Notes under the pieces: model-generated
What the model saw: only the letters and a program-made list of their open reading frames with translations
Databases searched by the model: none
What the model was told of the DNA's origin: nothing
UHGV virus genome: UHGV-0145753
Strand: one strand, 5' to 3'
DNA from: a virus
DNA: 11,086 bases
Shown here: positions 4,955 to 9,598 of the stretch, one piece after another
Layout of the letters: each line of letters begins with the position of its first letter
How positions within the stretch are numbered: position 1 is the stretch's first letter
Program-made: the position numbers and the translations under genes

Positions 4955-5896
4955 ATGCTTTATAACACCGGCACCATCGCCATTAATGGAAATACCGCCA
5001 CCGGGACGGGTACAAACTGGACGGCACCGGCCAGCCAGGTCCGCGCTGGCCAGACGATTATCGTGATGTCTAACCCGGTGCAGCTGTTTCAGATTTCATC
5101 CGTGAACAGCGCCACGTCAATGACGGTAACGCCTGCTGCATCACCGGCGCTGAGCGGCCAGAAGTACGGCATTCTGGTATCAGACAATATCTCGGTTGAT
5201 GGGCTGGCGCTGGCCATGTCGCAGCTTATCAAGGAGTATGACGAGAATATTGGTGCGTGGGAGACGTTCGCCACAACCTCAGCCAACCAGAACATTACCG
5301 TTACGATCAATGGCACCAGTTTATCAATCCCGGCTCTTGGGAAATTACTGCAGAAGGGGAGCAACGGAGCTTTGCCGGTTAATCAAGGTGGTACCGGCGC
5401 AACGAATGCCGCAGACGCTCGCACAAACCTTGGTTTGGGAGAAGGTTCGGTGTTACCCGTTGGTGTGCCTGTTCCGTGGCCTGCAGCCACTCCGCCAACA
5501 GGCTGGCTGAAATGCAATGGTGCGGCTTTTTCTGCTGAAGAATACCCAGAACTGGCAAAGGCTTACCCGACAAATAAATTGCCTGATTTACGTGGTGAGT
5601 TTATGCGTGGCTGGGATGATGGAAGAGGCGTTGATAGTGGCAGGGGGATTCTCACTGCGCAATCTCATGGTATGCCGTCTATTTCAGGAACGTTTAATGG
5701 TCTTTTTGCTGTTAAACAAACAAATGGTTTAGGTGGTGTTTCTGTAGCAAAAAGTACAAATACTGAAACTTTATCTACTTCATCTGGATCAGGTTCCGTG
5801 TTTGATTACACGTTTAATGTCAGCGGTTCGACTCCGGTATCACCAGAACTTCGTCCGCGTAATATTGCATTTAACTATATCGTGAGGGCCGCATAA
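4955..5896 (+). CDS. Side tail fiber protein: constant N-terminal part (to about 5430) fused to the currently expressed variable C-terminal part carrying a phage tail-collar-like domain
   Basis: GGAG Shine-Dalgarno 7 nt upstream of ATG 4955 (the ORF-track start at 4940 is a TTG). The N-terminus MLYNTGTIAINGNTATGTGTNW is fibre-like, and the C-terminal motifs (PTGWLKCNGAAFSAEEYPELAKAY, LPDLRGEFMRGWDDGRG) are typical of tail-collar domains. The left inversion site lies in-frame at 5418-5443. Confidence 0.85.
   Translation: MLYNTGTIAINGNTATGTGTNWTAPASQVRAGQTIIVMSNPVQLFQISSVNSATSMTVTPAASPALSGQKYGILVSDNISVDGLALAMSQLIKEYDENIGAWETFATTSANQNITVTINGTSLSIPALGKLLQKGSNGALPVNQGGTGATNAADARTNLGLGEGSVLPVGVPVPWPAATPPTGWLKCNGAAFSAEEYPELAKAYPTNKLPDLRGEFMRGWDDGRGVDSGRGILTAQSHGMPSISGTFNGLFAVKQTNGLGGVSVAKSTNTETLSTSSGSGSVFDYTFNVSGSTPVSPELRPRNIAFNYIVRAA
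5418..5443. repeat. Left recombination site of the invertible segment (gix/hix/pix-like), crossover dinucleotide TT at 5430-5431
   Basis: CTCGCACAAACC-TT-GGTTTGGGAGAA. Positions 5430-5444 are the exact reverse complement of 7254-7268. The half-site resembles the Hin/Gin-type consensus (TTCTC..AAACC) as I recall it. It is embedded in-frame in the tail-fibre gene (codons N-L-G-L-G-E). Confidence 0.7.
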
Positions 5897-6498
5897 TGAA
5901 TAATGCAGAATTAAATAGTGAATTGATTGCTACTGCGGCAGGGAATATTACCGTTTATAACTATGATTGTGAAACACGAGAATATATTTCCACATCAACT
6001 GAATATCTTGCTGTGGGTGTCGGTATCCCGGCATGTTCCTGTCTGGATACACCAGGTATACATAAGGCGGGTTATGCAATATGCCGCTCTGTGGATTTAA
6101 ATTCATGGGAATATGTGCCAGACCATCGAGGTGAAATTGTCTATAGCACCGAAACGGGAGATACCAAAGAAATCACAGTGCCAGGCGACTATCCCGAAAA
6201 TACAACCACTATCGCCCCGTTAACGCCATACGATAAATGGGATGGTGAGAAATGGGTGACCGATATTGAGGCACAGCATAGCGCCGCAGTAGACGCGGCA
6301 GAAGCGCATCGCCAATCGCGGATTGATGCTGCAATGGCTTCCATCAGTCTGATTCAGCTGAAATTGCAGGCCGGACGTAAACTGACGCAGGCAGAAACAA
6401 CCCGGCTTAACGCTGTGCTGGATTACATTGACGCGGTGGTGGCAACAGATACCAGCACCGCGCCGGATGTCATCTGGCCTGAACTACCGGAGGCGTAG
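5896..6498 (+). CDS. tfa: Tail fiber assembly protein (Tfa chaperone) for the currently expressed fibre variant
   Basis: Start overlaps the fibre stop (TAATG) with a GAGGG Shine-Dalgarno upstream. C-terminal motif LDYIDAVVATDTSTAPDVIWPELP is typical of the conserved Tfa C-terminus. Confidence 0.8.
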   Translation: MNNAELNSELIATAAGNITVYNYDCETREYISTSTEYLAVGVGIPACSCLDTPGIHKAGYAICRSVDLNSWEYVPDHRGEIVYSTETGDTKEITVPGDYPENTTTIAPLTPYDKWDGEKWVTDIEAQHSAAVDAAEAHRQSRIDAAMASISLIQLKLQAGRKLTQAETTRLNAVLDYIDAVVATDTSTAPDVIWPELPEA

Positions 6499-6913
6499 GC
6501 CATTCAATATCTGGAGCACTGGAAATATCGACCATTTCCAGTGCATCCAGATAATCCAGCCACAAATTATATTGTGCCAGTTCCTCACCTTTCAGACGAC
6601 CGATAGCTGCTTTACCAGGCCATTGCTTACCGTTCATGTATTCGTTGGCATGGTCAATTCTCGACTTTTTCTCTGAGTCAGCCGCAGCAAGTTGTTCTTT
6701 ATGCGTAGGTGACGGAAGATCTACCCAGCAAGGCAACCCATCATCACCAATGCCACGCATTTTACCCTCAGGAGCGTTTCCCATGAAAACCAGTGCATCT
6801 TCAGCATCTATATTGATGCCGTCTGACGGCCATGTGCCAGCAGTTAAATAATCATATTTCAGTGCCACAAGATAAAAAGCATTTTCCGTCGGGCTGAATA
6901 CATAGTCGACCAT
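6470..6913 (-). CDS. tfa: Alternative tail fiber assembly protein (Tfa-alt), in the silent orientation
   Basis: Conserved Tfa-type C-terminus (LWLDYLDALEMVDISSAPDIEWPTPP). Preferred start is the ATG at 6913, which overlaps the Sv-alt stop in a TAATG junction mirroring the + strand arrangement and has a GGGAG upstream; the ORF-track start at 6931 would add 6 aa. Its 3' end overlaps the + strand tfa convergently by 29 bp. Confidence 0.72.
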   Translation of the reverse strand: MVDYVFSPTENAFYLVALKYDYLTAGTWPSDGINIDAEDALVFMGNAPEGKMRGIGDDGLPCWVDLPSPTHKEQLAAADSEKKSRIDHANEYMNGKQWPGKAAIGRLKGEELAQYNLWLDYLDALEMVDISSAPDIEWPTPPVVQAR

Positions 6914-7268
6914 TAATATCCCACTCCCCATACTGCCACTGTTGAATTAGATTTCGTGTATGCGCAAGCGGCTTTGAATTTGACCCGGTCAACAATCGCT
7001 GCGCTAACAAAAGGGGCTCCATTAGTCGCGTAGATCACAGAATTGACCAGCGAAGGATTGATGGAAAGGCAAGCATTAGGAAAGGCAACCGGCCATGAGC
7101 CATCAACAACGACCATATTACCGTCGGTAGATTGCGGCACTGATAGCGTCTTCCACTGAAGCAATGCTGTTCGTTGTACTCCACCAATTAATACTGGAAT
7201 AGTGATGTTACCTGCACTGCTGGCTAATGCTGTCGCAGCAGGCATTTTCGCTGCTTCTCCCAAACCAA
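6913..7268 (-). CDS. Alternative tail-fibre variable C-terminal cassette (Sv-alt), promoterless and startless; it would be fused in-frame to the constant part after inversion
   Basis: The minus-strand reading frame is open from the right inversion site to a stop at 6913-6915. Across the site it encodes V-G-L-G-E, matching L-G-L-G-E at the left site in the same codon phase, so recombination at the central dinucleotide keeps the frame. The ORF-track start at 7287 is a TTG beyond the crossover. Confidence 0.62.
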
Positions 7269-7280
7269 CCTTTTTTATAA
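7255..7280. repeat. Right recombination site of the invertible segment (gix/hix/pix-like), crossover dinucleotide AA at 7267-7268
   Basis: TTCTCCCAAACC-AA-CCTTTTTTATAA. Its left half and centre are the exact reverse complement of the left site's right half and centre. It lies about 60 bp upstream of the invertase start. Confidence 0.7.
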
Positions 7281-7339
7281 CCATCAAAAATCTGGTGATG
7301 CTTCGCCGTTTCTCCTGTTTTCATAACAGGAGAAATCCC

Positions 7340-7888
7340 ATGATTTACGGTTATGCCCGAGTATCAACAAACCACCAGGACACTGAATTGCAACTAACGG
7401 CGCTCAAGTCAGCGGGTTGTGAGAAAATTTTTGAAGAGCATGCCAGCGGGAGGAAATCGAATCGGCCGGTTCTAAAACGGCTGATCGCCACTATGCAGCC
7501 GGGGGATGAACTGGTGGTCTGGAAGCTGGACAGGATAGGCCGCAACGTTCTGCATGCGCTGTTGATGTTCCAGCAGTTACAGGAAAAGGGTATCAACTTC
7601 CGCAGTATTACCGATGGCGTGGATCTCAAAACAGCCAGCGGCCGCTATAACTTTCGTAACATCCTTTCCGCAGCACAATATGAATCTGATCTTAATAGCG
7701 AACGTACCTTAGCAGGGCTGGCCGTAGCCAGGGCAAAAGGGCGAGTTGGTGGTCGCAGGCCTAAGTTCACGGATGAGCAATGGCGGGAAATGGGGGAGCG
7801 GATGGCAACCGGTGAATCACGACAAAGCGTATCAAAAACGTATGGAGTAGGGCTCTCAACTCTGTATAAAAAGTTTCCAGCTAGCTGA
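7340..7888 (+). CDS. Site-specific DNA invertase, serine recombinase of the Hin/Gin/Cin/Pin family
   Basis: AGGAGA Shine-Dalgarno 7 nt upstream of ATG 7340. N-terminus MIYGYARVSTNHQDTELQ has the catalytic Ser at position 9 (Gin: MLIGYVRVSTNDQNTDLQ) and the C-terminal helix-turn-helix ends GLSTLYKKFPAS (Gin: ALSTLYKKHPAK). About 182 aa; the upstream in-frame extension in the ORF track (from 7202) overlaps the inversion site and is not used. Confidence 0.93.
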   Translation: MIYGYARVSTNHQDTELQLTALKSAGCEKIFEEHASGRKSNRPVLKRLIATMQPGDELVVWKLDRIGRNVLHALLMFQQLQEKGINFRSITDGVDLKTASGRYNFRNILSAAQYESDLNSERTLAGLAVARAKGRVGGRRPKFTDEQWREMGERMATGESRQSVSKTYGVGLSTLYKKFPAS

Positions 7889-7909
7889 TAACGGGAAAGA
7901 AACAGAGAA

Positions 7910-7950
7910 GGGCACAAATATTGTGTACTTTAATGTGCCCTTTAATTTAT
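7910..7950 (+). terminator. Putative terminator hairpin after the invertase gene
   Basis: Perfect 7-bp stem GGGCACA (7910-7916) and TGTGCCC (7934-7940) followed by a T-rich tract (tttaatttatt). The loop is long (17 nt) and contains a TGTGTAC motif, so this could instead be a protein-binding site. Confidence 0.4.
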
Positions 7951-8113
7951 TGATTGGTGGTTGAATTGTCCGTAACTTTTTGATTTAAGTGCAAATTTCT
8001 AATAAATTAGAACACTTTCTTAAATTGTCATTTGGCATATTACGAACAATTCCGCGTAAAAACGTTCTGTTACGCTAAACCCTTATCCAGCAGGCTTTCA
8101 AGGATGTAAACCA

Positions 8114-8136
8114 TAACACTCTGCGAACTAGTGTTA
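8114..8136. repeat. Inverted repeat TAACACT-N9-AGTGTTA; candidate att core-type site pair or operator
   Basis: Perfect 7-bp arms with a 9-bp spacer, inside the AT-rich intergenic region between invertase and integrase and about 30 bp upstream of the TGTGTAC repeats. Confidence 0.3.
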
Positions 8137-8164
8137 CATTGCGTGTAGCTTTGAGTGGGCAACT

Positions 8165-8207
8165 TTGTGTACACTTTTGTGTACCCAAAAACAAAAATGT
8201 GTACCCA
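8165..8207 (+). repeat. Three direct copies of a TGTGTAC(C) motif just upstream of the integrase start; candidate integrase arm-type or regulator binding sites
   Basis: TGTGTAC at 8166-8172 (within the palindrome GTGTACAC), 8178-8184 and 8198-8204. The last two are TGTGTACCCA 10-mers spaced 20 bp apart. A fourth TGTGTAC lies at 7922-7928 in the hairpin loop after the invertase. Confidence 0.45.
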
Positions 8208-8211
8208 TTCA

Positions 8212-9405
8212 ATGATCACCGACACAAAGCTCAGGAAGGCGCTCGGCAAGAAAAGAGATGATATCGAGATTATTTCTGATTCGCACGGGCTCAACGCCAG
8301 AATCAGCCAGGCCGGAAAAATATCATTTTTCTATCGGTATCGCTGGGCCGGTAAAGCGGTAAAACTCAATGTTGGTGATTATCCTGCAATGAGTATCACC
8401 CAGGCAAGAGAGCGTCGCCAACAATTCAGAAACTGGTTAACTGAGGGACTGGATCCGCGAGAGCAGGTGAAGCTGGATAAGCAGACCCGACAGGAAGCGA
8501 TGTCCGTTGCCGAAGCGTTCAATTACTGGATTGAAAGGCACTGTATCGCTAACGGGCTAGTTAAAGTCGATTACTATCGCCAGGTGTTTGAGAAACATAT
8601 CGCCGAACCGATGAAGAATGTCAAAGTCGATAACACAGCGAAAATGCACTGGATCAACGTCTTCGATTCTATAGAAAGCAGGGTGATGGCTCATTACATG
8701 CTTTCGCTGTGCAAACGGGCGTTTAGGTTCTGCGTTAACAGAAGTGTGATCGCCTCAAACCCACTCGAGGGATTACTGCCATCTGATGTCGGGCAAAAGC
8801 CTAAAAAGAGAACTCGCAGGATGGACGATGACGATCTGCGCAAAATCTATCAGTGGTTGAAAAGCCATATGTCGATAGAGTCCGTTTTCCTGGTGAAATT
8901 TATTATGCTTACCGGATGCCGTACGGCTGAGATTCGACTTAGTGAGAGATCATGGTTTCGATTGGATGATAATGAGTGGGTCGTGCCTGCGGGCAGTTAT
9001 AAAACTCGGGTACATATTAGAAGGGGGCTCTCAGACGCCGCCGTTAACTTGGTCAGAAATCACCTCAAGAAAATAAACACCAATCACCTGGTGACTTCAC
9101 AACGTAAAATTGATGGCGGGATCAAAGATTCGCCCGTTCATTCACCTGTGGCATCCAATTACGCCCGTTCTATTTGGAATGGAACAGGTATGGCAGAGTG
9201 GTCGCTTCATGATATGAGGCGGACGATAGCCACAAATCTCTCTGAGTTAGGTTGCCCGCCGCACGTAATTGAAAAGCTACTTGGTCATCAGATGGTCGGT
9301 GTAATGGCTCACTACAATCTGCACGACTACATCGATGACCAAAAACACTGGCTCCACGTTTGGCAGAGCCATCTTGAAAGTATCATTGGTGAGCCATTCA
9401 GTTAA
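8212..9405 (+). CDS. int: Tyrosine site-specific integrase, P4-type (N-terminal arm-binding domain plus C-terminal catalytic domain)
   Basis: N-terminus [17 protein letters not shown]...[23 protein letters not shown]...[18 protein letters not shown] fits the P4-integrase arm-binding pattern. The C-terminus has the catalytic signature ([19 protein letters not shown]...AHY). Start chosen at ATG 8212; the ORF track begins at an upstream GTG (8155) that would put the repeats inside the coding sequence. No strong Shine-Dalgarno at either. Confidence 0.9.
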
Positions 9406-9598
9406 TTGGCTGTTTCACACCTTCCCACTCTTTGACTGACTCCGACTTCCAGCGGTTTGGGTTACCAGGAAAATCAGGAGCAGGGAACGGCTTCGCAAAA
9501 CCCCGCGGCATAGTTTCTGTGCTTTGCCATGACCAAAGGGTTTTACGTGAGATTTTGTATCGACTGGTCAGGTCTGACGTCAGCAAAATATCATCCAT
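9398..9598 (-). CDS. AlpA/Xis-like small helix-turn-helix protein (putative excisionase or recombination directionality factor, or transcriptional regulator)
   Basis: 66 aa with GGAG Shine-Dalgarno 9 nt upstream. The pattern ...[11 protein letters not shown]...FPAP..........W....VKEW resembles AlpA (..RATIYDWL..ATFPKK......W.EAEIDEWL). It is convergent with int and overlaps its 3' end by 8 bp. Confidence 0.55.

Follow-up and report, generated by a model that had tools for sequence, protein, structure and literature searches.

The TGTGTAC repeats that lie on both sides of the crossover core in a phi80-type phage attachment site are probably the arm-type binding sites of the phage integrase (Int). 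In the 11,086-bp stretch of viral DNA analysed here (the window), five copies, designated P1, P2, P'1, P'2 and P'3 (Table 1), are predicted from sequence comparison to be the phi80-type Int arm-type sites of attP. The arm-site reading, which the first-pass annotation had offered alongside that of an autoregulatory operator, is supported by the identity of the locus as attP, the placement of the copies on both arms, the arm-binding domain of Int, the conservation of the repeats and the layout of attP in phage P4. The repeats would thereby add a new, or at least a so far unannotated, case to a well-known class of elements, and this in a long-studied phage. In a full-text literature search whose scope did not extend to the original phi80 att papers, TGTGTAC in combination with integrase returned only HIV papers.

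In the proposed mechanism, the N-terminal domains of Int protomers would hold the arm sites and their catalytic domains the core, and the P arm would be brought back to the core by two IHF-type bends. An integrative intasome of the kind known from lambda and P4 would result. Once the phage has integrated, P1 and P2 would be found at attR, and P'1-P'3 would stay with int at attL.

Table 1 Coordinates of the features of the attP region and the adjoining genes in the window (P1, P2 and P'1-P'3 are predicted arm-type sites)
Feature	Position	Strand	Remarks
P1, TGTGTAC	7922-7928	+	Exact match; P arm, ~98 bp left of core centre
P2, TGTGCCC (degenerate)	7934-7940	+	12 bp after P1; same repeat family
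IHF consensus match AATCAATAAATTA	7943-7955	-	0 mismatches to WATCARNNNNTTR; not annotated in phi80 record
IHF site AATCAAAAAGTTA	7973-7985	-	0 mismatches to WATCARNNNNTTR; IHF protein_bind in JX871397
attP crossover core ACACTTTCTTAAATTGT	8012-8028		Annotated in JX871397
Conserved P'-arm block A	8040-8078		33/55 columns invariant over 8024-8078 in 24 non-identical relatives
Conserved P'-arm block B	8128-8156		18/29 columns invariant
P'1, TGTGTAC	8166-8172	+	Invariant in 24 relatives
P'2, TGTGTAC	8178-8184	+	12 bp after P'1
P'3, TGTGTAC	8198-8204	+	14 bp before int start; invariant in 24 relatives
int, tyrosine integrase (397 aa)	8212-9405	+	Pfam PF13356 + PF00589
xis, excisionase (66 aa)	9398-9598	-	Annotated in phi80

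Identification of the locus as a phi80-type attP

When the region around the repeats (window 7700-8400) was compared with known phages, it shared 99.9 % identity with mEp237 and 99.7 % with phi80, HK225 and mEpX1, and positions 7910-8219 were identical to phi80. The phi80 record JX871397 annotates an IHF site, the attP core, a possible pI promoter, int and a convergent xis; no Int arm sites are annotated in that record. The genes 5' of the motifs encode a lambda-J-like tip protein, tail fibres with their chaperones and a Pin/Gin-type invertase, and the gene 3' of them encodes the tyrosine integrase.

In E. coli lysogens, the attL match begins at window position 8006 and adjoins kch, and the attR match stops at 8028 and adjoins yciI. 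The two junctions are ~47 kb apart in E. coli strain ECCRA-119. Since the region is split at the core in lysogens, the window represents the unintegrated attP. The insertion target is the kch-yciI intergenic region, and no tRNA gene was found in the window.

The motif copies bracket the core, with those at 7922 and 7934 on its left and those at 8166, 8178 and 8198 on its right. The P' cluster is located 146-186 bp from the core centre, and the last copy of the triplet ends 8 bp before the int ATG at 8212. In E. coli lysogens, P1 goes to attR, ~47 kb from the other three exact copies. The first-pass annotation had described the four exact copies as flanking the intergenic region; their positions are correct, but the one at 7922 is better described as the P-arm partner of the triplet than as a flank.

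P1 sits in the 17-nt loop of an imperfect hairpin (GGGCACA...TGTGCCC) directly after the stop codon of the invertase gene. We also considered this hairpin as a terminator. However, it was rejected, as it was not called by a terminator scan and as the stem is not conserved in Klebsiella phage Kp4864-1 while the motif is. The PCR fragments known to function as attL and attR (Minaeva et al. 2008, PMC2532685) end at window position 8216 and start near 7686; they contain all repeat copies and are not minimal.

Two further features of the region were observed. The decamers TTGAATTGTC (7961-7970) and TTAAATTGTC (8020-8029) are 59 bp apart, the second lying within the crossover core; the first is possibly an additional core-type site for Int, and chance is an equally good explanation. 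Farther upstream, a pair of 20-nt inverted repeats (5425-5444 and 7254-7273; 90 % complementary, with AAACC..GGTTT) bounds an invertible tail-fibre segment (5425-7273) with alternative fibre C-termini and two opposed Caudo_TAP chaperone genes. The segment adjoins the Resolvase/HTH_7 invertase gene (7202-7888). As the invertible region has decayed to pseudogenes in phi80 itself, the window is closer to mEp237.

Copy number and clustering of the repeat

When both strands of the whole window were searched, exactly four copies of TGTGTAC were found. All are on the + strand, and the pattern search confirmed the four positions given in the first-pass annotation. The expected count in the window is 0.94, and four copies were reached in 0 of 200 dinucleotide-preserving shuffles; the frequency of the motif is thus above expectation. 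Within the triplet, the start-to-start spacings are 12 and 20 bp. Two details from the first-pass annotation, the identical 10-mers TGTGTACCCA at 8178-8187 and 8198-8207 (20 bp from start to start) and the palindrome GTGTACAC at 8167-8174, can be read directly from the sequence. No separate explanation is necessary for the palindrome.

A look-elsewhere test was applied in which any 7-mer with three non-overlapping copies within 40 bp was counted. Of 1000 windows simulated by a first-order Markov model, 13 showed such an arrangement; of 20,000 sequences simulated to match the composition of the intergenic region (36% GC), 58 did. The clustering of TGTGTAC is real and unusual, and the within-window statistics alone are not overwhelming (p ~0.003-0.013 after look-elsewhere correction).

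The phi80 genome (46,150 bp, both strands) contains six copies of TGTGTAC, four of which are found in the 290 bp studied here, and attP is the sole dense TGTGTAC cluster in that genome. When the repeat families of the two arms were compared, TGTGTAC was the sole family common to both.

IHF consensus matches in the P arm and conserved blocks in the P' arm

Two IHF consensus matches, 30 bp apart, are located between P1/P2 and the core (Table 1). In the P' arm, no match to the IHF consensus WATCARNNNNTTR was found within one mismatch. The P' arm contains two conserved blocks in addition to the triplet. Block A has no IHF consensus, and block B includes the '-35' hexamer (8143-8148) of the possible pI promoter of the phi80 record. 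These blocks could be Xis sites or a promoter/activator region. A TGTTAC is present in each of them (at 8069 and at 8132, a distance of 63 bp). Phages Oslo and Pm34 (with CTGTTTCA) as well as Klebsiella ST11-VIM1phi8.2 (with TGCTTTAA) have comparable repeat pairs, the spacing of which is 54 bp.

Integrase, excisionase and the start of int

Int matched the Pfam families Arm-DNA-bind_3 (PF13356; residues 2-87, E-value 1.5e-18) and Phage_integrase (PF00589; E-value 7.8e-17). Its N-terminal domain also matched the CP4-like integrase N-domain structures PDB 3JTZ (E-value 7e-9) and 3JU0 (E-value 6e-8). Because Int is heterobivalent and has an arm-binding domain, arm sites are needed on attP. In an alignment of Int across lineages, 17 of the 60 invariant columns fall in the N-terminal domain, a distribution consistent with an unchanged DNA specificity.

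The int (+) and xis (-) genes converge, and their 3' ends overlap by 8 nt (9398-9405). Xis (66 aa) gave no Pfam match at E <= 0.01. The xis gene co-travels with int in all lineages checked, and Xis is 48 % identical where Int is 52 % identical.

Different records use three in-frame starts for int (GTG 8155, ATG 8197 and ATG 8212), and only the start at 8212 is conserved across lineages (as ATG or TTG). No Shine-Dalgarno sequence was recognisable at any of the three candidates. The 'longest form' of Int, from GTG 8155 (X04051), was rejected as a 1-nt indel in relatives breaks the frame. This indel lies between P'2 and P'3, so the stretch is non-coding. P'3 overlaps the upstream in-frame ATG at 8197.

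A 567-bp contig of Streptococcus danieliae (NZ_JACBXX010000235) was found to encode residues 124-311 of Int at 100 % identity. It is most likely a contamination of the assembly by phi80 or by an E. coli cloning strain.

Conservation in close relatives

Close relatives were compared using 24 non-identical sequences with Int identities of 77-100 %. In the three 7-mers of P'1-P'3, 20 of 21 columns are invariant; the corresponding numbers are 4 of 49 columns in the spacer 8079-8127 and 14 of 100 third-codon positions of int. This pattern of substitution indicates that the triplet is under purifying selection. The block 8164-8211 is almost invariant as a whole, and the prophages of Kluyvera, Citrobacter and Klebsiella (Int 77-90 %) keep the whole block TTTTGTGTACACTTTTGYGTACYCAAA...AAATGTGTACCCATTCAATG. 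At P'2, TGCGTAC is the sequence of most relatives, whereas more distant phages have TGTGTAT or TGTGCCC; the site is always located 12 bp after P'1.

For the P arm, the window was compared with Klebsiella phage Kp4864-1 (Int 77 %), the sequence of which was deposited from core to core. Blastn detects no match between its P arm and the window, as the two are too diverged. Even in this diverged arm, P1 is conserved as TGTGTAC, and ...ATGTGTACTTATATGTGTCCTTT... is found 92 bp ahead of the ATTGTC of the core. In the window, the corresponding distance, from ...ATTGTGTACTTTAATGTGCCCTTT... to ATTGTC, is 102 bp. The equivalent of P2 in Kp4864-1 is TGTGTCC, located 12 bp downstream of the equivalent of P1. 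Conservation of the P arm above 50 % Int identity rests on this one genome. Viral contigs were also scanned with core and P-arm patterns to find further P arms, or attR, in prophages whose Int is 76-87 % identical; the matches listed were either attL copies or random hits in AT-rich DNA. When the P arm of the 52 % lineage was sought, no attR was found at the ends of the Stx2a phage LC727874 and of Klebsiella phage MK448234.

Conservation in distant integrase lineages

The same motif and layout recur at 61, 54, 52 and ~34 % Int identity, so the repeats are present in the homologous regions of related phages, a point that the first-pass annotation had left to comparison. The 52-61 % lineages consist of Klebsiella and Stx2a phages that integrate next to sapC. 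Their first copy, located at -38 to -43 relative to the start of int, is a perfect TGTGTAC, and a second copy is found exactly 12 bp on (TGTGTAT, TGCGTAC or TGTGCCC). A third copy, (A/G)GTGTAC, is found at -10 to -12 in the 52 % and the 59-61 % lineages; it is absent next to int in the 54 % lineage. Taken over the 90, 77, 61, 54, 52 and ~34 % lineages, the perfect TGTGTAC is located at -38 to -53 of the int start.

At ~34 % Int identity, Salmonella phage Oslo and Proteus phage Pm34 are available in the attP form. Both contain TGTGTAC pairs with 12-bp spacing on both arms, and the downstream pair abuts int. The P-to-P' distances are similar in all attP forms (231 and 233 bp in Oslo and Pm34, 234 bp in Kp4864-1 and 244 bp in the window). 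Phage SEN34 has the same layout with TGAGTAC. In an unbiased count of 7-mers in the 70 nt upstream of int, TGTGTAC was the sole word common to seven of the eight lineages, SEN34 with its TGAGTAC being the eighth.

The integration loci differ among the lineages that share the triplet. Lineages down to ~34 % Int identity, with different targets, keep one arm word and one geometry; among them are phi80 at kch-yciI, the Stx2a and Klebsiella phages next to sapC, Oslo and Pm34.

The int promoter and possible autoregulation

The possible pI promoter of the phi80 record has its -35 hexamer at 8143-8148 and its -10 hexamer (TACACT) at 8170-8175; the hexamers are 21 bp apart, and the -10 is overlapped by P'1. 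A consensus scan of 7850-8300 found no sigma-70 consensus promoter. Since int is transcribed away from the core and the upstream host gene kch is divergent in lysogens, the int promoter must lie within the P' arm, and hence within attL. The repeats of the triplet probably lie in the integrase leader, as the first-pass annotation had proposed.

Int bound at P'1-P'3 would occlude the int promoter or leader and would thereby repress its own synthesis. A precedent is found in the prophage KplE1, where IntS acts on the arm sites of attL to repress the promoter of its own gene (Panis et al. 2010, PMC2951348). The same self-repression has been reported for P4 Int (Panis et al. 2010, PMC2951348, citing Piazzolla et al. 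2006), and these authors predict it wherever attL overlaps the int promoter. From the gene arrangement and the analogy to KplE1 IntS and P4 Int, we give an even chance to the proposal that int is autoregulated by Int via P'1-P'3.

Alternative explanations for the repeats

The repeats could be sites of Xis, the recombination directionality factor (RDF), which would assemble on them head to tail, bend the arm to allow excision and act as a repressor of int. The xis and int genes are neighbours and were found together in all lineages examined, so that covariation gives no indication of which of the two proteins reads the motif. In KplE1, direct repeats of the int-proximal arm are bound by TorI, which represses intS (PMC2951348). 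However, four attP-form genomes have the motif in pairs on each of the two arms. To our knowledge, the RDF sites of lambda and KplE1 are on one arm only, and an assignment to Xis would set the two-armed motif here against documented RDF sites that are one-armed. The dedicated arm-binding domain of Int also needs sites, for which TGTGTAC is the sole two-arm repeat family; in P4, the same layout is annotated as att arm repeats; and the two other conserved blocks of the P' arm remain free to serve as Xis sites. We therefore regard binding by Xis as improbable. It is very improbable that the P' cluster consists of int expression signals only (a -10, a transcription start, a leader and translation initiation), with incidental repetition and no recombination protein bound. 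Such a role would agree with the possible -10 (TACACT) that the phi80 record places inside P'1, with the overlap of P'3 and an in-frame ATG and with the nearly complete invariance of 8164-8211. It leaves unexplained the P-arm copies, which are 231-244 bp upstream and, in the prophage, ~47 kb from int, as well as the constant 12-bp pairing. Moreover, the sequence after TGTGTAC varies across lineages (TACACT, TACTCT, TACATA, TACCAA) while the 7-mer is constant, and no promoter consensus was detected.

We also weighed the possibility that the repeats are operators of some other regulator, be it the CI repressor, a CII-type activator acting on pI or a transcription factor of the host. The pI promoter of lambda is activated by CII through direct repeats, and the int promoter region of phi80 is without a good -35, which would suit an activator-dependent promoter. 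However, the cro-cII/pRE region of phi80 holds no TGTGTAC copy or cluster (up to one mismatch), and neither TTGC-N6-TTGC nor a TGTGTAC cluster was found in its cro-cII region. The annotated 19-bp CI operators of phi80 (...ACA..ATGTGGATT) are unrelated to TGTGTAC, and the motif accompanies the integrase module in phages of different types (Stx2a phages, Klebsiella phages, Oslo and Pm34). We consider such operators extremely improbable; a reading of the repeats as LexA sites was rejected along with the CII-activator and CI-operator readings. The probability that the repeats are a chance cluster of a short word in AT-rich intergenic DNA is close to nil: the 7-mer is indeed short and the corrected within-window p is only ~0.003-0.013, but its fixed spacing is conserved across many lineages where the neighbouring DNA has diverged.

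Significance

Arm-type sites of Int, the reading preferred here, would have practical consequences. The phi80 Int/attP system is a routine tool for genome engineering (CRIM plasmids, the Dual-In/Out method). The positions of the arm sites would define the functional limits of attP, attL and attR, would account for the extension of usable attL fragments as far as the int ATG and would predict self-limited int in lysogens. One arm word with one geometry, conserved across many prophage integrases of enterobacteria, would also give a simple rule to locate the att arms in unannotated prophages of this integrase family. If the N-domains are truly interchangeable, the system would combine a conserved, portable arm module with an evolvable core specificity.

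A shared arm word may have a further effect, which we consider doubtful: the Int of one prophage may bind the arms of an unrelated co-resident prophage, resulting in cross-repression or cross-assistance of integration and excision. As the P' sites overlap the int start region, a foreign Int should then also bind the int promoter of that prophage.

Comparison with known systems

The closest likeness in layout was found in the satellite phage P4, the record of which (NC_001609) annotates 'attP arm sequence repeats'. In int orientation, each arm of P4 carries two repeats with a 12-bp spacing, and the core separates the distal pair from the proximal one. The proximal pair is at a similar distance from the core in the two phages (~+122 in P4 and ~+146 in the window). 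In both phages, int is transcribed away from the core, and the third repeat covers an upstream in-frame ATG, 4-5 codons before the conserved start. The Int proteins share 23 % identity (E-value 3e-11), and both have an Arm-DNA-bind_3 N-domain. However, the repeat word of P4, TTGGGGGCAT, is unrelated to TGTGTAC, and the two phages thus have the same layout with different site families. The third repeats are likewise unrelated in motif (ATGTGCCCCCAAATG at 3915-3926 in P4; ATGTGTACCCATTCAATG at 8197-8214 in the window), the third copy being inverted in P4 and direct in the window. P4 integrates into a tRNA gene, unlike the attP of the window with its kch-yciI intergenic target, and the P4 sites are experimentally supported whereas those of the window are predicted from sequence.

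Like the window, lambda attP combines a heterobivalent integrase with two P-arm and three P'-arm sites, and IHF sites lie between the P-arm sites and the core. The lambda sites P1, P2 and P'1-P'3 were reportedly described by Ross and Landy in 1982. Lambda Int belongs to a different N-domain family and reads a different motif, and its P' sites, which are contiguous, lie near the core. In lambda, int is transcribed towards attP and the arm sites do not overlap the int promoter, unlike in the window.

KplE1 (CPS-53) differs from the window in integrase lineage, in motif and in its tRNA target (argW). Its RDF sites have been mapped and its autoregulation has been demonstrated, whereas for the window we infer autoregulation. 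The arrangement in KplE1 is nevertheless the one proposed here: the int promoter lies inside attL, the arm-type site P'1 overlaps the -10 and Int represses itself (PMC2951348).
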